Sequence record: NC_010105.1
Length of the DNA stretch: 64,000 bases
Origin: Escherichia phage JS98
Reading direction: 5' to 3' (one strand)
The notes under the pieces are model-generated. The model did no database searches, was not told the DNA's origin, and saw only the letters and a list, made by a program, of their open reading frames with translations. Positions 209-47,150 of the stretch are shown piece after piece (the stretch's first letter is position 1; every line of letters starts with the position of its first letter). Made by a program: the position numbers and the translations under genes.

Positions 209-907
209 TTAGAACGAGTGGCTTGAGCCTGCTTCCATAGCTAATACATAAGAAGCTTGTGTACCTTCAAACTTAGCTGCAAATCGAGCATCCTGACCTT
301 CACCGCGTGCCCATAACAACACATGATAATCGGCTGGCATCATTTTCATATTGGTTTTGTTAATGATGAACTTAAAGTCAGGACCATCATGGTCAGCCAC
401 GACCAGAGAATACAATGGACGAGTTAATTCTTTATCGTCGACTTGTTTATAACCATTGATAACAATTTTACCATCGTCTACAGTGATTGCAAATGTATCA
501 ATACTCAGACCAGAGGACACACGCATCAACTGTTGATAATCTTCGGCTTTCAAATCGAAAATAACTTCAGCCACAGGGAACGGAATAGCTTTACTTGGGA
601 ATGCGATTGTGCTTGGGTCAGCAATAGGCCACTTAATTGTTGAACGTTGGTCTTTAATAATTAATGTGGTTTGGTCTTCACTTACCGAAACTTCAGCACT
701 TTCTGATACCAAAGACAGAATACTTAAGAAGCCATTCAAATCATAGATTGCCGCTTCGATATCGAAGGTATCACTTACAGTGGCTTCACCATAACTTGCA
801 CCGGTAACAGATCGGGTCAGAATGGTGTTACCTGGTTTAAGCATAATGCCTGGGTTAATACCGGAGAAGTTTTTAAGAATGTTCAGGGTTTCTTTAGAGA
901 ATTTCAT
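209..907 (-). CDS. 45: sliding clamp gp45
   Basis: 232 aa, colinear with T4 gp45 (MK.SK.T...LKNF...GIMLK...DLNGFL..LSLV); size and position match. Confidence 0.9.
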   Translation of the reverse strand: MKFSKETLNILKNFSGINPGIMLKPGNTILTRSVTGASYGEATVSDTFDIEAAIYDLNGFLSILSLVSESAEVSVSEDQTTLIIKDQRSTIKWPIADPSTIAFPSKAIPFPVAEVIFDLKAEDYQQLMRVSSGLSIDTFAITVDDGKIVINGYKQVDDKELTRPLYSLVVADHDGPDFKFIINKTNMKMMPADYHVLLWARGEGQDARFAAKFEGTQASYVLAMEAGSSHSF

Positions 908-5709: not shown

Positions 5710-5937
5710 TTAATCCTTGTAATTCAGTTTTATATAAAAATCTTCGTCGGTAACGTGATAGTTATAAGTTAATGTTCCTTTTTCAGCTTTAATTTCTACC
5801 GAATCAGGGTGTTTTGGGTCTATTACAATAGGAAGCTTGGCAATATCCTTAAGATACATTTTAAGAACATAAGGAATTGCCGAATACTCTCCATCTACTT
5901 CTTCTAAAAGGCCTACCAGGTTAATCTTGAGTTCCAT
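5710..5937 (-). CDS. hypothetical protein (about 75 aa)
   Basis: ORF immediately downstream of gene 55; start set at internal Met to avoid long overlap. Confidence 0.4.
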
Positions 5938-6478
5938 ATAAAAAATCCAGCTCACCAACTTTAGATTCAGCGCTCTTATCAGACCCTGGCGCTTTAACTA
6001 AAGAGGTTTCATACTGAGTCATTTTGTCGTAAATATCCTGGATAAAAGTTTCATCTGCGATACCTACCATGTCGTCGTCATTGGCGTCATAAACGTTATG
6101 GACGAAGTAGCTGTATTTCTTTGCCATTTCTTTACGTTCTTTCTTGATACGCTGAACAAAGGCATTAAAACAAGCCATAGTGATATATGCATGTGGGTTG
6201 TCGTATTTTGTTTCGTCGAAGTTATGAAGACCTTTAATAGAGGCTTCGATTCCATCAGCAATCATTTCTTGCTTCCAAGATTGGGTATATCCGGAGAAGT
6301 TGAACCGCTTAGAAAGGCCTTCAGCAATGAGCATAATAGCCAAGCCGATAACGTCGTTCTGACGAACTATTTTATTAGGGTCGGTATTTTCTCGGAGTTC
6401 CGTTTTCCACTGGGTAATGGCTTTCAGAAGCTCCTTATTATTTACATAGTTATTTTTAGTCAGTTTAATTTCGGTCAT
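5921..6478 (-). CDS. 55: late-transcription sigma factor gp55
   Basis: 185 aa; NYVNNKELL...WKTEL...[58 protein letters not shown] matches T4 gp55 nearly residue for residue. Confidence 0.92.
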
Positions 6479-36286: not shown

Positions 36287-36343
36287 TATGTTCTCCTCAA
36301 ATTACGGGCTCATAATATCTCAATCATGGGCCCATGTAAACAA

Positions 36344-36607
36344 TTATTTCATATTATTGAAATAATCTTCTGCATTAAAATCGTTATCATGGTAAACTTT
36401 GGTAGACGTTTTGGCGTAGCCTTCAGCTGAGAACATATTAATCACAACTTTAATTGTATACCACTGTCCATCTTCGTTACCCATTACTGCATAGGTTTCA
36501 TACACTGGGTGTTCAGGACCGATAACCTTAATATCGTTAACAGTAGCACCAAATTCTTCAGGAACGCATTTCATAAAGAAATTAAACAATTCACCATAAT
36601 TATCCAT
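36344..36607 (-). CDS. hypothetical protein (about 87 aa)
   Basis: Start at MDNYGELF (ATG 36605-36607) after GAAGGAGAG RBS. Confidence 0.4.
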   Translation of the reverse strand: MDNYGELFNFFMKCVPEEFGATVNDIKVIGPEHPVYETYAVMGNEDGQWYTIKVVINMFSAEGYAKTSTKVYHDNDFNAEDYFNNMK

Positions 36608-36633
36608 TTTACTCTCCTTCACACTGTTGTTTT

Positions 36634-36671
36634 GATAGGTCTATAGTATCATGTTTAAAGGAGGTGTAAAC
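36634..36671 (-). promoter_or_regulatory. conserved early-promoter cassette (PeSL-like)
   Basis: Minus-strand GTTTACACCTCCTTTAAACATGATACTATAGACCTATCAAAACAACAG. Confidence 0.5.
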
Positions 36672-36706
36672 AACTTTGTGAAATTATTTTTAGTTTAAAC
36701 CCCCTA

Positions 36707-36728
36707 AAAGGAGACCAAAGTCTCCTTT
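36707..36728 (-). terminator. rho-independent terminator (AAAGGAGAC-CAAA-GTCTCCTTT palindrome)
   Basis: Hairpin immediately after stop of 36731-37348, followed by TTTAGGGGG on minus strand. Confidence 0.5.
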
Positions 36729-36730
36729 CA

Positions 36731-37348
36731 TTATTTACGGGTCTTTTCGAACTGTGCTGCGTCACCTGCAAGGCGGCGGGCTTGACGAAGTTTGTTATCA
36801 ATTTCTTCGTGCATAGGCTGGGTATACTTAAGGCCTTCAACCGTCAGGTAAAGACGATAGAGGTCCGGGGTATCTAGGTTGTTAATGTGCTGCCCATTAC
36901 GAAGGGCGTTGAATTCTCGAACGAGTTGTTTAGTTTCGGATTCGATTTCAGAAACCAAAGAAGCCAGCTGGTTATATTTTTTAACAATAGTGCTGGTGTC
37001 GAACTTGATTTTAGGTTTAGGAGCTTCTTTTACAGGCTCTGCTTTAGGTGTAGGTTTCGGCGCTGCAACTTTGGTCTGAGCCGCGGGTTTAGAAACAGGA
37101 GCTTTAGCTGGTTTAGCAGGCTTAGTAGAGCCACCGGCTACGATATCTTTAAAAGCTTTGGAAGCTTTGTAATATTCTTTCTGGCTACTAGTATCAAAAC
37201 CATACATATCATAAACGTTTTTAAAGAACTCGGTAGTGGTTTTAGTCCCGGAAATTTTATCATAAGCAGCTTGCCACATATCTTTAGTCATGCGCACGCC
37301 GGCTTCATTCAGAACGCTTTCGTTCAAAAATTCATTGTAAGTTTTCAT
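36731..37348 (-). CDS. internal-protein-like protein (205 aa) with Ala/Pro/Lys-rich linker
   Basis: MKTYNEFLNES capsid-targeting leader; KPAKPAKAPVSKPAAQTK low-complexity segment. Confidence 0.55.
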   Translation of the reverse strand: MKTYNEFLNESVLNEAGVRMTKDMWQAAYDKISGTKTTTEFFKNVYDMYGFDTSSQKEYYKASKAFKDIVAGGSTKPAKPAKAPVSKPAAQTKVAAPKPTPKAEPVKEAPKPKIKFDTSTIVKKYNQLASLVSEIESETKQLVREFNALRNGQHINNLDTPDLYRLYLTVEGLKYTQPMHEEIDNKLRQARRLAGDAAQFEKTRK

Positions 37349-37376
37349 TATTGTTTCCTGTGTTAATTAACTTATC

Positions 37377-37384
37377 TATTTATA
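37377..37384 (-). promoter_or_regulatory. late promoter TATAAATA
   Basis: Minus-strand TATAAATAG about 30 nt upstream of the 36731-37348 ATG. Confidence 0.55.
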
Positions 37385-37385
37385 C

Positions 37386-37412
37386 AAAAAGGCCCAACCT
37401 TTCGGAAGGGCC
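37386..37412 (-). terminator. rho-independent terminator (GGCCC...GGGCC stem followed by T-run)
   Basis: Minus-strand GGCCCTTCCGAAAGGTTGGGCCTTTTTGTATA right after stop of 37418-37972. Confidence 0.6.
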
Positions 37413-37417
37413 GTAAA

Positions 37418-37972
37418 TCAGTTCTTGTAGAACCGGAACGGGTTCACGTGGAAGGCCAACATAGCTTTAGGGATTTTACGAGACAAAAGACTCTTAAGCT
37501 TCCAGCCACAGTACACGCGAAGGTAAAATGTGATTCCGCCGACCTTAAGATAAGGAACTGAAGCAAATACACCCCAGGCGTCATCATTCCACATCCACAA
37601 CCAACCATGGTGAGCTTTATCAGGAGAACCTGATTCTACGTCAGGATTACCACGATAATGGAATTCCGAGCTACAATCACGGCCTAGTTTATGATAAGCA
37701 AAGTTATAAGCTTTATTTCGCCATAGCCAAGCTACTCTCTGGAGATAAACACCACCAGGCATTTTCCTGATTTTAGCCCAACGTTTAATATGACCTTTAT
37801 CGCCGTCAATTGGATTATCGTATGTCATCATCCAATCAAAACCGTATGGCAATTTACCAGTCTTTTTATTATGAAAAGGAACCACAAAAGGCGCAAGGAT
37901 AACGGCTAGAACCATAGAGATAAAATCTAGTGGGACCAACAGAATCCAACTCAAATATTTTAAAAGTTTCAT
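37418..37972 (-). CDS. membrane-anchored Trp-rich protein (184 aa; N-terminal TM helix)
   Basis: N-terminal LKYLSWILLVPLDFISMVLAVILAPFVV; bracketed by two copies of the same promoter/terminator repeat. Confidence 0.5.
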   Translation of the reverse strand: MKLLKYLSWILLVPLDFISMVLAVILAPFVVPFHNKKTGKLPYGFDWMMTYDNPIDGDKGHIKRWAKIRKMPGGVYLQRVAWLWRNKAYNFAYHKLGRDCSSEFHYRGNPDVESGSPDKAHHGWLWMWNDDAWGVFASVPYLKVGGITFYLRVYCGWKLKSLLSRKIPKAMLAFHVNPFRFYKN

Positions 37973-42953: not shown

Positions 42954-43781
42954 TTATGCGTTCTTCCATACTTTCTGAGCTGAGTAACGCTTACCTTTAG
43001 ATACAAATTGCTGAAGCGGAAGCATGACTACATTAGCCCAATCAGAAGGTTTTATCTCTACTAAAGGACCCTTGATATTTCCAGGGATATAAGCCTTAAT
43101 CATCACGTCAGCGCCAGCGAATCCTTTTACCTTACTCCAATCGATTTTTAATTTAGTCGAGTTCGTAATGGTAGGCGTACTCGCGTATTGCTTCAGCAAT
43201 TCTTCTAGAAATTGCTGGCGTGCTTTAGGCGGAATATAGTGTAAGTTCAACCCGTACATCAGATTATGCTTACCAAGCCCAAGATAAATGATTAAAGGAT
43301 ATTTGTCCCAGTAGGGTAATGTGTCCTTGTGTTTAGCATCATAGATATAAGCATAAAGCTTACCAGGAGATGGTTTAGATACCTGGTGTCCACGAATTCC
43401 TTTCTTTAATGTTTCTGTAAACCATTTAGCTGATTTATTGTTTACAGCAGCGCCTTCGTTAGCAATCTTATCACGAATACTCTTTCTAAAACTATTCACC
43501 AAAATTAATTGACGCTCAGCTTTGGTTAATTTATTGCCAGGTTTCTTCTGGAGTTTTTCGACCTGTACAGCAGTTTTAATTCGACTCGAGTATCGAGACA
43601 TCGCAGATGTAAAGCTAGAATACTTAATGCCTTTATCTTCAGCGAATTTCTTAGCCGAGACGCCTTTGGCCTTAGCTTTGGCATATTCAACACCTAAAGC
43701 TATCCATTGTTGCTCTGAACGAGTAGGCTTAGAACCTTTTGTGGTTTCAGTGGCCTCATTGATGTAGGAAAATATACTCAT
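42954..43781 (-). CDS. 2: DNA end protector gp2
   Basis: About 275 aa basic protein at the gene 2 position; ATGA overlap with gene 4 stop. Confidence 0.65.
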
Positions 43782-44227
43782 CCTTTCCATCCTAATTTTT
43801 TCAGTGAGTTTTCAGTTATCAATCTAAAATTGATTCCCATTTTATCTGCTGTAGCTTTAGCAGCTTTCCATTTATCTTTATTTACACTCCATGTATAATG
43901 TTCGTTGATATATCTCTTTTTAGCGGCTGTAGTCATTTTAGCAGGAGCCGCTGGAGGATGGGTTTCTTTAAAAGGTTTGACTTCAAAAAAGAATTGTTGG
44001 CCGTTATCAAACTTAACCCAGAAGTCCATAAAATATCGACGTTTCTTTCCATCAGCATTACTAAAATACGGAATAACTACCTCTTCAGAGTTCCATTGGA
44101 CTACGTTAGGATGATTGTCAAGCCAACGCATGAGCCATGCTTCCCATGAGGAACGATATTGGATTTTCTTCCAGTCACCTTTATATTTTTGTAAGTTGGT
44201 AGGTTTAAATTTCCCTGAGTAAGCCAT
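43778..44227 (-). CDS. 4: head completion protein gp4
   Basis: 149 aa at the gene 4 position, divergent from gene 53. Confidence 0.65.
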
Positions 44228-44238
44228 AGTTGCCTCCT

Positions 44239-44246
44239 TATAAATA
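44239..44246 (+). promoter_or_regulatory. late promoter TATAAATA for gene 53
   Basis: TATAAATA about 28 nt upstream of gene 53 ATG. Confidence 0.6.
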
Positions 44247-44253
44247 TTAATAT

Positions 44254-44261
44254 TATTTATA
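44254..44261 (-). promoter_or_regulatory. late promoter TATAAATA for gene 4 (divergent)
   Basis: Minus-strand TATAAATA about 27 nt upstream of gene 4 ATG. Confidence 0.55.
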
Positions 44262-44273
44262 CTCGGAGGCCCT

Positions 44274-44876
44274 ATGCTCTTCTCATTTTTCGATCCTATC
44301 GATTACGAATCAAAAACAGTCAAGCCAGATTCCGGCTCATTAACAAATGCCGATGTATTGAGCGTGCCGATGACTGATATATTTAGAAATTATAAAGAAT
44401 ACTTTGATAGAGTGGCTAAAAATTATACACTAAAAACTTATTATATCAATGGAGCCCCGCGTCCGGAAGAATTAGCCCATCTTCTTTATGGCAATGTCCA
44501 ATTATATTGGGTTCTACTGATGTGTAATAATATATACGACCCGTATTATGGATGGATTACCGGCCAAGAAGCCGCCTACCAAGCAGCCATCCAAAGATAT
44601 TCTACTGCTGGTGGAAACCAGGTCCTTTACCATGTAAACGAAAAAGGCGAGAAATTCTGGAATCTTGTCAACACACCGGAAAATCCGTATACTTGGTATG
44701 ATAAAGGCGATACAGAAAAACGCTATCCTCAATACGAAGGCCCATTGGCCGCAGTAGATATTTACGAGGATGCTATTCGCAAAAATGAATATAAGCGCGA
44801 AATAAAAATTATAGACCCTAATGATATTGAGTCTTTTATTTCTGCTCTTATTCGTGAAATGGAGAAAGCCCTCTAA
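44274..44876 (+). CDS. 53: baseplate wedge protein gp53
   Basis: 200 aa, first late gene, immediately followed by gene 5. Confidence 0.8.
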   Translation: MLFSFFDPIDYESKTVKPDSGSLTNADVLSVPMTDIFRNYKEYFDRVAKNYTLKTYYINGAPRPEELAHLLYGNVQLYWVLLMCNNIYDPYYGWITGQEAAYQAAIQRYSTAGGNQVLYHVNEKGEKFWNLVNTPENPYTWYDKGDTEKRYPQYEGPLAAVDIYEDAIRKNEYKREIKIIDPNDIESFISALIREMEKAL

Positions 44877-46618
44877 TGATTAACATGTCTGATAATTTAA
44901 GTTGGTTCGTCGGTGTAGTTGAAGACCGAATGGACCCACTCAAACAGGGCCGAGTACGCGTACGCGTCTGGGGTATGCATCCATATGAAAAAGTACAAGG
45001 TCCTGTAAAAGGCCTTCGTACAGAAGATTTACCATGGATGTCGGTATTAATGCCTACATCTTCTGCCTCTGTTTCAGGTATCCAAACCGCTATGACTGGT
45101 ATGGTCCCAGGTACACAAGTTTATGGCCATTTTCTTGATAAGTGGAAATTAAACGGGCTTGTCCTCGGCACATATGGTTCAGCTTCAAAACAAAAGGCAA
45201 ATCCAAACGAAGGTTTTAGTGACCCAACAGGACAGTATCCGCTTTATTTAGGTAATGATGCCGCTGCACTAAACCGAGGCGGTGAAGTTGGATATGATGC
45301 CACTTCTAACGTAATACAAGATGCAAACACTGATGTAGGTATTAATCCTGACGGTTTGGATTTAAGCCAAGTTAAGCCTGATGATAATCCTAATTTCACA
45401 ATAGAAAACATGCTTCATCGTGATGAGGGTCTTCGTCTGAAGGTATATTGGGATACCGAAGGATATCCTACCATAGGTATAGGTCACCTTATTACTCCAC
45501 AACCTATTAGAGATATGAATCAGATAAACAAAATATTATCTAATCAAATAGGTCGAGAAGTTAAAGGTAACCCTGGTGCAATATCAATGGACGAGGCTTC
45601 TAAGTTATTCCAAGAAGACCTTAAAAAAGTTCAAAACGATATAGGCCGGCATAGTGTTGTAGGTCCTGTTTACAATAAAGAAAACCGTTCAAGACAAATG
45701 GCTCTTGAAAACATGGCTTTCCAAATGGGTTTAGGTGGACTTGCTAAATTTAAAACGATGCTCGGTGCAATGTTAGTCGGAGATTATAAGAAAGCATTTG
45801 ATGCCGCTCGTGATTCTGTATGGTTTAACCAAACTAAAGGCCGTGCCTCAAGGGTATCAATGATTATCCTTACAGGTAATATGGAATCATACGGTATTAT
45901 GGCCCCTAAAGAAAGAGAATTTAATGGCCGTTCTTATAGGATGATTCAAACCTTTGCAGCCCCTACAAATTCTGACCCTGCCGACCCGTGGACTCCGGAA
46001 GATACAAGGATTCTTTTTAAAGAACCTGATTCTAGTTATAAAGGCGAATACCCATATGTCCAAACCATGCAAACTGAAGGCGGGCATATCCAAGAATTCG
46101 ATAACACCCCAGGGCAAGAACGTTACCGATTAATCCACCCTACAGGTAGTTATGAAGAAGTCGCTCCTGACGGACGTAAAACTTCTAAGACGGTAGCCGA
46201 CGGGTATTATATGACCCAAGGCGATTCTAATACTTATGTTGGTGGTAATAATAAAGTCAATATAGGTGGCGATGAAACCTATTATAATATGGCAAACGTT
46301 CGACGTCAAACTGACGGTTCTGAAAGCATCCATATTCGTGGTAATGAAACCAAAACGGTAGAAGGCGACGGGACCCTTATTGTTAAAGGAAATGTTACGG
46401 TTATTGTTGAAGGCAATGCTGATATAACTGTTAAAGGTGATGCAAAAACCTTAGTCGAAGGCAACCATGATTATACAGTAAATGGAAATGTTAAGTGGTC
46501 GGTAAACGGAAACGTCGATATGACTGTTGCCGGTAATTGGTCTGAAACTATGTCGACTATGAGTTCTATTGCGTCCGGTCAATATACTATTGATGGTTCG
46601 AGGATTGACATTGGCTAA
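44876..46618 (+). CDS. 5: baseplate hub / tail lysozyme gp5
   Basis: 580 aa; central lysozyme domain (MLHRDEGLRLKVYWDTEGYPTIGIGHLI) and C-terminal beta-helix repeats (VEGDGTLIVKGNVTVIVEGNADITVKGD). Confidence 0.92.
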   Translation: MINMSDNLSWFVGVVEDRMDPLKQGRVRVRVWGMHPYEKVQGPVKGLRTEDLPWMSVLMPTSSASVSGIQTAMTGMVPGTQVYGHFLDKWKLNGLVLGTYGSASKQKANPNEGFSDPTGQYPLYLGNDAAALNRGGEVGYDATSNVIQDANTDVGINPDGLDLSQVKPDDNPNFTIENMLHRDEGLRLKVYWDTEGYPTIGIGHLITPQPIRDMNQINKILSNQIGREVKGNPGAISMDEASKLFQEDLKKVQNDIGRHSVVGPVYNKENRSRQMALENMAFQMGLGGLAKFKTMLGAMLVGDYKKAFDAARDSVWFNQTKGRASRVSMIILTGNMESYGIMAPKEREFNGRSYRMIQTFAAPTNSDPADPWTPEDTRILFKEPDSSYKGEYPYVQTMQTEGGHIQEFDNTPGQERYRLIHPTGSYEEVAPDGRKTSKTVADGYYMTQGDSNTYVGGNNKVNIGGDETYYNMANVRRQTDGSESIHIRGNETKTVEGDGTLIVKGNVTVIVEGNADITVKGDAKTLVEGNHDYTVNGNVKWSVNGNVDMTVAGNWSETMSTMSSIASGQYTIDGSRIDIG

Positions 46619-46628
46619 TATTTTACCT

Positions 46629-47150
46629 ATGAGCACAGATTTAGGAGACTCCATGGAAGGAGCCTCAATCGATGTTACGTTTACCGCTCAATTAGAAACA
46701 AACGAAACATTAGTTGAAATAAATATAACAGAATATGAGCCAACAGAAGGCATTATTGTCGATGGGGCTCGTTTATACGGAACCTATGAATCGGTATTCG
46801 GATTTTCTGAAGATGCGTTAAAATATCGATTAGGCGATGAATTTAAAACAGCAGGTTCATGGAAAGATTTACCAGAGGACAAGAGCACTCAATTATACCT
46901 CTGGAAAGCCCCTGGTAATCTTCAGAAGACTTTTTCCTATACCGTCACATTAATCTATGACTTTCAGGAAGAGTCATCAGGAGGTGATACAGGGAGCTCA
47001 GGAGGAAGTAATTCTAGAGCCGGTAACGAAACAGACCCTCCTCCAGCACCAGTAAGAAAAACTCTTACTAAGGTTTATACCAAGGTTATAGTGGGTAATT
47101 GGAGCAAATGGGCTAATCAACTCAGAGAATATGTATATGCGAGGCCATAA
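46629..47150 (+). CDS. hypothetical baseplate-region protein (5.1 position)
   Basis: Start at MSTDLGDS; Gly/Ser-rich C-terminal segment. Confidence 0.45.

Follow-up and report, generated by a model that had tools for sequence, protein, structure and literature searches.

Genes and sequence elements of the gene 4/53 gap

The DNA analyzed, a 64,000-nucleotide stretch of Escherichia phage JS98 (NC_010105.1; hereafter the window), comes from a T4-like phage in the JS10/JS98 group (Dhakavirus). Over its full length, it aligns collinearly with Escherichia phage JS10 (Dhakavirus, Tevenvirinae) from ~30265 onward, interrupted by a small number of insertions and deletions. The segment described here (43700-44900) is 99.4% identical to JS10 DNA and matched 79 phage records at high stringency. 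Elsewhere, JS10 carries a ~600-bp homing-endonuclease gene (segC/mobE) between genes 5.1 and 5.4 that is missing from the window at the corresponding place (~47147-47150).

Two late genes diverge within this segment. Gene 4 (43778-44227, minus strand), a 149-aa ORF assigned from the annotation of gp4 in the near-identical region of JS10, encodes the head completion protein and opens the leftward late unit 4-2-3. Its product has a Pfam TnsA-like endonuclease N-terminal domain (E 2.9e-24). Gene 53 (44274-44876, plus strand), a 200-aa ORF that matches Pfam Phage_gp53 (E 4e-73) and carries the same annotation in JS10, encodes a baseplate wedge subunit and is the first gene of the rightward late unit 53-5-..., with gp5 coming after it. 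The gene 4 start codon ends at 44227 on the minus strand and the gene 53 ATG begins at 44274, leaving a gap of 46 bp (44228-44273) that is 67% A/T.

Read directly, the gap is cat-AGTTGCCTCCT-TATAAATA-TTAATAT-TATTTATA-CTCGGAGGCCCT-atg, where cat and atg are the start codons of genes 4 and 53. From left to right, its elements are the gene 4 Shine-Dalgarno (SD) sequence AGGAGG (44233-44238, minus strand), which lies 5 nt before the ATG and abuts the plus-strand box; an exact TATAAATA on the plus strand (44239-44246), the candidate box of a rightward late promoter, P53, predicted to occupy -13 to -6; a 7-bp all-A/T spacer, TTAATAT (44247-44253); an exact TATAAATA on the minus strand (44254-44261), the candidate box of a leftward late promoter, P4, with the same predicted position; and the gene 53 SD sequence GGAGG (44265-44269, plus strand), 4 nt before its ATG. 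The CCTCC block beside the plus-strand box and the SD sequence of gene 53 are both kept in homologous gaps. Overall, the sequence from 44223 to 44278 is an imperfect inverted repeat with a start codon, an SD sequence, and a box on each arm. The first-pass annotation had placed two copies of TATAAATA in a 46-bp gap, each at the expected distance from its own ATG. On re-reading, the coordinates were exact, and the distances are 27 nt for gene 53 and 26 nt for gene 4.

The same annotation took the gap to be the only strand switch in the window, and this holds. In JS10, annotated genes are all on the minus strand to the left and all on the plus strand to the right, and our own codon-usage gene call on the window agrees, with 98 minus-strand genes followed by 16 plus-strand genes. 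A greedy call based on length only had placed five plus-strand ORFs to the left of the gap; we rejected these, as they have negative coding scores, overlap positive-scoring minus-strand ORFs, and are at odds with the JS10 annotation. Since the strand switches only here, each late unit needs its own promoter in the gap, which is the divergence point of two late structural units, 4-2-3 to the left and 53-5-6... to the right. In Aeromonas phage avDM10-HWA (Biquartavirus), gene 4 lies away from a strand switch. As its flanking annotated genes, including a gp5-like gene, are all on gene 4's strand, the divergent promoter pair is absent from that lineage.

Late-promoter features and recognition machinery

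T4-type late promoters have a TATAAATA box at -13 to -6, the first position of which tolerates T or A (PMC1524935; PMC2988020), and an A/T-rich segment directly downstream (PMC2988020). The late open complex is unwound from -12 to +2 (PMC7892883). Both strands of the gap agree with this description. Beyond the exact boxes, positions 44239-44261 form 23 consecutive A/T bp, with 15 A/T bp after each box; the boxes are a short distance, 26 and 27 nt, 5′ of genes 4 and 53, which are orthologues of T4 late genes; and the predicted starts, A44252 and A44248, are both purines. The DNA upstream of each box, where a -35 element would be sought, is the SD sequence and coding start of the other gene, which are conserved for other reasons. 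No sigma-70 promoter was reported within the gap.

Components of the machinery that would use these promoters are encoded in the window. These are gp55, the sigma-like late-promoter recognition factor (5921-6478, minus strand; phmmer E 1.1e-93 to T4 gp55 of the cryo-EM structures 7D7C and 7D7D, chain 7D7C_F), and gp45, the sliding clamp that activates T4-type late transcription (209-907, minus strand; Pfam gp45-slide_C, E 1.6e-34, and DNA_PPF, E 3e-13); gp33 is not in the window. Contacts with the -10-like element or the template strand have been reported for the gp55 residues N13, L54, R57, F86, H95, Y97, T99, and R114 (T4 numbering; PMC7892883). In our alignment, all eight of these reported DNA-contact residues are identical between the window and T4, and for this reason the recognition specificity should be that of T4.

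Placement of late boxes in the window

Across the window as a whole, TATAAATA is not enriched, with 7 copies compared to 7.4 ± 3.0 in dinucleotide shuffles. However, a motif whose total count is at chance level can still be clearly functional once its placement is considered. None of the seven copies is inside a called gene, all seven are oriented in the sense direction of the next gene, and the distance to the start codon is 21-28 nt for six of them; the seventh, at 84 nt, is an outlier. Although intergenic DNA makes up 7.1% of the window, six copies are wholly intergenic by strict counting, compared to 0.78 expected and a maximum of 5 in 2000 shuffles. Conversely, coding DNA contains essentially no copies where composition predicts ~8, which suggests selection against stray late promoters within genes. 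In shuffles of the gap itself, both boxes occurred together in only 3.4e-5 of 2,000,000.

The window's other sense-oriented boxes, four TATAAATA and two of the variant AATAAATA, lie 21-29 nt from a start codon, save the outlier at 84 nt. The two AATAAATA variants precede the positions of genes 9 and 49 by 26 and 29 nt. Late-type boxes elsewhere in the window also lie before gene 13, rI (lysis inhibition), and lysozyme e, all three of which are late genes in T4. In addition, two genes of unknown function carry putative late promoters amid otherwise early-type genes. One is a 205-aa ORF (36731-37348, minus strand; PHROG 2280) with an exact TATAAATA 28 nt before it; this ORF is inside a ~1.1-kb block (36297-37386) that has no counterpart in the JS10 stretch compared. 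The other is the ORF at 37418-37972 (minus strand; PHROG 2143), with TATAAATA 26 nt before it.

The two predicted promoters interlock

The first-pass annotation described the pair as back-to-back, and here its account needs correction. Divergent promoters are said to have been classified by Beck and Warren in 1988. In a back-to-back pair, the order is leftward start, minus-strand box, plus-strand box, rightward start, and the two promoters share no DNA. In the JS98 gap, the plus-strand box is on the gene 4 side and the minus-strand box is on the gene 53 side, such that neither element is upstream of and outside the other transcription unit. With starts predicted from the -13 to -6 placement of the boxes, the order along the DNA is plus-strand box (44239-44246), leftward start (~44248), rightward start (~44252), and minus-strand box (44254-44261). 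The promoters are therefore interlocked, or overlapping.

The predicted geometry is tight. For the rightward promoter, the box at 44239-44246 would direct initiation at A44252 from a bubble spanning 44240-44253. For the leftward promoter, the box at 44261-44254 would direct initiation at A44248 on the minus strand from a bubble spanning 44260-44247. These bubbles, which correspond to the two predicted open complexes, overlap in exactly the 7-bp spacer, and the two starts, which could be off by 1-2 nt, are 4 bp apart. Each box falls at about +3 to +10 of the opposite predicted transcript and is thus inside its leader. The predicted leaders are ~22 nt for gene 53 and ~21 nt for gene 4, and each has UAUUUAUA followed by a strong GGAGG.

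Conservation of the box pair

We assembled homologous gaps from 13 further phages with annotated gaps and from 80 IMG/VR loci found by gp4 alignment. The box pair, NATAAATA on the plus strand and then TATTTATN, in this order and 0-30 nt apart, was present in 41 of the 59 distinct gaps upstream of gene 4, compared to 0.05 per set in shuffles (maximum 2), with the qualifications that the regular expression (NATAAATA on the plus strand, then NATAAATA on the minus strand) holds 7 of the 8 box positions fixed by design and that the gaps are phylogenetically related and do not represent 41 independent events. Related though these sequences are, the boxes have been preserved against a background that has diverged. 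An unbiased MAFFT alignment of 21 gaps gave a similar picture: ATAAATA is near-invariant and TATTTAT is invariant or near-invariant, while the spacer between them and the SD-to-ATG spacers are variable.

The pair spans at least 12 genera, plus metagenomic relatives. Phages that contain it include members of Tequatrovirus, Mosigvirus, Dhakavirus, Gaprivervirus, Kanagawavirus, Winklervirus, Moonvirus, Gelderlandvirus, Marfavirus, and Krischvirus, as well as Acinetobacter and Shewanella phages. The metagenomic relatives in the set have gp4 identities as low as 45-49%, and in two of the four that were tested, the partner ORF is gp48-like. Among 40 homologues, the spacers vary in sequence but are 79% A/T overall. 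Crossed pairs have spacers of 0-26 nt, and the length distribution peaks at 7, 10, and 15; at lengths above 11 nt, the 5′ ends of the two transcripts would overlap each other. In several metagenomic contigs from distant T4-like relatives (L074, L075, L078-L081, L085, L091, and L099), the plus-strand box overlaps the gene 4 start codon (CAT followed directly by ATAAATA), such that the rightward promoter would begin inside gene 4's initiation codon.

Comparison with T4 and other relatives

A divergent late promoter pair at the gene 4 gap is already known in kind, and at this very locus in T4 and RB69; the present result matters little beyond correct annotation. The T4 region (NC_000866.4, 77338-77384) has the same genes in the same orientation, with SD sequences flanking the boxes, and its gap is 47 bp. 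TATAAATA occurs at 77349-77356 on the plus strand and 77364-77371 on the minus strand, separated by a 7-bp spacer as in JS98, and the gap reads cat-TGGATTCTCCT-TATAAATA-GATAATA-TATTTATA-AACAGGAGGGCCC-atg. The two phages differ in the spacer (GATAATA in T4, TTAATAT in JS98) and in the SD-to-ATG spacers, and the flanking genes are only ~66% identical at the DNA level. In RB69, the late promoters Pl:80613 (plus) and Pl:80684 (minus) were predicted using a hidden Markov model (Nolan et al., 2006; PMC1524935, Additional file 5), and we mapped both to the gene 4/53 gap. The RB69 sequence, TATAAATA-GTATTAT-TATTTATA, has the crossed order and 7-bp spacer of JS98. At 61 bp, the RB69 gap is longer than that of JS98; 15 additional nt precede the gene 53 SD sequence, the start codon is TTG, and the promoters are model predictions.

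Some relatives have a different layout. The Aeh1 late promoters Pl:122785 (plus) and Pl:122835 (minus), also predicted by Nolan et al. (2006; PMC1524935), map to the gene 4 gap of that phage (locus L064 in our set). Gaps of the Aeh1 and KVP40/nt-1 types resemble JS98 in having a divergent late promoter pair at the strand switch beside gene 4. However, these pairs are truly back-to-back, with the minus-strand box on the gene 4 side (TATTTAG, then CTAAATA). They also use a variant consensus, CTAAATA, have gp48 as the partner gene, and have predicted leaders of only ~13-15 nt. At two other loci, L030 and L037, the boxes overlap as TATTTATAAATA in a gap of 66-67 nt, and the box-to-ATG distance is near 26-28 nt. 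T4-like phages have two solutions to the strand switch: crossed boxes in a gap of ~46-51 bp, or back-to-back boxes with either a gap of ~66 bp or very short leaders. Both layouts keep the box-to-ATG distance within a narrow range. Because the back-to-back layout needs a ~66-nt gap or short leaders, crossing the boxes keeps a normal leader length within 46-51 bp.

Compared to T4 late promoters in general, which depend on gp55, gp33, and gp45 (P23 is an example), the JS98 pair has the same TATAAATA at -13 to -6 and A/T-rich downstream DNA 5′ of late structural genes; T4 late promoters have no -35 element. The difference is that the JS98 promoters are predicted to share one melted region, while most T4 late promoters stand alone. 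A T4 dRNA-seq preprint lists 150 T4 start sites. Our full-text literature search returned no paper with mapped transcript ends at the gene 4/53 gap of T4 or its relatives, and the GenBank records of T4 (NC_000866, AF158101, and X14845) and JS10 contain no promoter features at this gap.

A probable interlocked pair of divergent late promoters

We propose that transcription leaves the gap in both directions from two T4-type late promoters, each dependent on gp55. The rightward promoter would start the baseplate unit 53-5-6..., and the leftward promoter would start the unit 4-2-3. Each promoter would consist of the 8-bp TATAAATA box alone, roughly a helical turn upstream of the start. In the open complex (-12 to +2), a promoter's own box would be melted together with the common spacer, and the same box would also serve the opposite promoter as A/T-rich DNA transcribed early (+3 to +10). 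As polymerase covers tens of bp on either side of a start, the two promoters should not be occupied at once. Both polymerases would need the same ~50 bp, with one promoter occupied at a time, and the interlocking thus predicts competition for a single polymerase-binding site. This mutual exclusion is deduced from the general dimensions of polymerase. We consider it very probable (roughly 0.85), from the sequence evidence, that the gap is an interlocked pair of divergent T4-type late promoters that start these two units. Activity at both sites, the exact starts, and late timing are what we infer. The earlier description of the gap as a compact divergent late control region therefore survives with regard to sequence, placement, conservation, the presence of gp55 and gp45, and the match to T4 and RB69; the back-to-back geometry is abandoned, and promoter activity is a prediction.

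One alternative is that the two 8-mers are functionless chance products of A/T-rich intergenic DNA. The composition of the gap and the chance-level count of TATAAATA in the window (7 versus 7.4 in shuffles) are what such an origin would predict. However, the rarity with which shuffling the gap produces both boxes, the restriction of all window copies to intergenic, sense-oriented positions, and the conservation of the pair across genera against a variable background all speak against it, and given this placement and conservation, a chance origin is effectively refuted. It is also conceivable that only one box works as a promoter. The other box would then be a passive mirror image within the palindrome or an A/U-rich leader element, and its gene would be transcribed from elsewhere. 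A review of T4 late transcription cautions that not all 50 listed late sites have been proven active (PMC2988020), and a few relatives have a single recognizable box (five distinct gaps with only the plus-strand box and one with only the minus-strand box). Yet at the sole strand switch, neither unit has an upstream gene on the same strand from which it could be transcribed. Moreover, both boxes are exact matches to the consensus at a normal distance from the ATG, and both are kept in 41 of 59 gaps despite spacers of 0-26 nt, which break simple mirror symmetry. We therefore regard a single working promoter as very improbable.

A predicted hairpin in RNA that crosses the gap

Since the start codon, SD sequence, and box are present in mirror image on the two arms of the inverted repeat, RNA that crosses the whole gap is predicted to fold as a hairpin. 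The predicted folding energies of the read-through RNAs are -20.8 kcal/mol for the minus strand (z -4.3) and -20.2 kcal/mol for the plus strand (z -5.3). In each hairpin, the downstream gene's SD sequence and AUG (those of gene 4 in the minus-strand RNA) are base-paired to the complement of the ribosome-binding site of the opposite gene, such that both ribosome-binding sites would be hidden. The predicted late starts are in the 7-nt loop, and RNAs that begin there would lack the 5′ arm. The energies of these RNAs, -4.8 and -4.3 kcal/mol, are no better than those of shuffles, and we take the RNAs to be unstructured.

In T4, translation of genes e, soc, 49, and I-TevI is gated by a late promoter that lies inside a hairpin (PMC3014915). 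In silico, the gene 4/53 gap has the features of the gene e type: the SD sequence and AUG of the long transcripts are sequestered in a stable helix, and the predicted late start is inside the structure, yielding a late RNA without the 5′ arm. The likeness is incomplete, as the 5′ arm at the gene 4/53 gap is formed simply by the opposite gene's own promoter and ribosome-binding site in mirror image, and the hairpin here is a folding prediction. These features raise the possibility that the inverted repeat is primarily an RNA element, by which gap-crossing RNA (leftward early, middle, or anti-late) would be blocked for translation until late transcripts start inside the loop. Such a role would be added to the promoters and would not replace them. 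The gene e paradigm is documented, and the folding energies are as it would predict, with stable read-through RNAs and late-start RNAs at the level of shuffles. In addition, folding predicts a similar hairpin for almost every one of the 21 homologous gaps (-9 to -26.5 kcal/mol), and the SD-to-ATG spacers, which are otherwise unconstrained, are perfectly complementary in phage GEC-3S and locus L021. However, each paired block (the boxes, the SD sequences, and ATG/CAT) is conserved for another reason, and with two symmetric promoters and ribosome-binding sites, the pairing is automatic. The predicted pairs are invariant or nearly so, and covariation consequently says nothing either way. The arms are also persistently asymmetric, with 1 nt between SD sequence and box on one side and 3-4 nt on the other, which argues against selection for a perfect stem. 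Finally, there is no established upstream promoter for read-through, and the review of such gating (PMC3014915) does not give the gene 4/53 site as an example. On balance, we treat the RNA-element interpretation as tentative, with the odds clearly against it on the folding models, and a real gating role for the hairpin as doubtful.

A bolder version combines the promoters and the hairpin. The crossed layout could be a selected design in which alternate firing from the shared melted spacer couples the output of 4-2-3 and 53-5-6..., and in which the palindrome silences gap-crossing RNA for both first genes, such that gp4 and gp53 would be made only from transcripts born in the loop. If the crossed layout were selected in this way, gating of the gene e or I-TevI type would extend to a bidirectional element. 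We consider this unlikely. A bidirectional terminator was also considered and rejected: the stem is mostly A/U, lacks a T-run, and was not flagged by a terminator scan.

In some homologues, the symmetry is greater than in JS98. The gap of GEC-3S (L018, 1779-1833) is almost perfectly palindromic over its full length, TTTAGCACCCT...AGGGTGCTAAA, and its read-through hairpin reaches -26.5 kcal/mol. The SD-to-ATG spacers of L021 mirror each other exactly. Symmetry in these two gaps goes beyond what the promoters and SD sequences need and may reflect either selection or sequence homogenization between the arms.

Antisense within gene 53 (44389-44528, minus strand), we detected an 11/12 match to a sigma-70-type promoter (TTGATA-16-TATAAT, 44449 to 44422), as well as two sites that match at 10/12. 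Also antisense in this gene is a terminator-like hairpin followed through by a T-run (44339 to 44321, minus strand), and all of these elements point toward the gap. The number of antisense sigma-70-like matches in gene 53 is at chance level (6 compared to 4.0 ± 2.5). The hexamers are not conserved in T4, RB69, or other genera, and neither these sites nor the terminator-like hairpin are conserved outside close relatives. Compared to T4, RB69, CBH8, Moon, and CGG4-1, gene 53 of JS98 contains a 24-nt in-frame insertion at ~44331-44354 (codons ~20-27), which Kosakonia phage 305 and vB_EcoM_RZ also have, and the terminator-like hairpin sits in this lineage-specific insertion.
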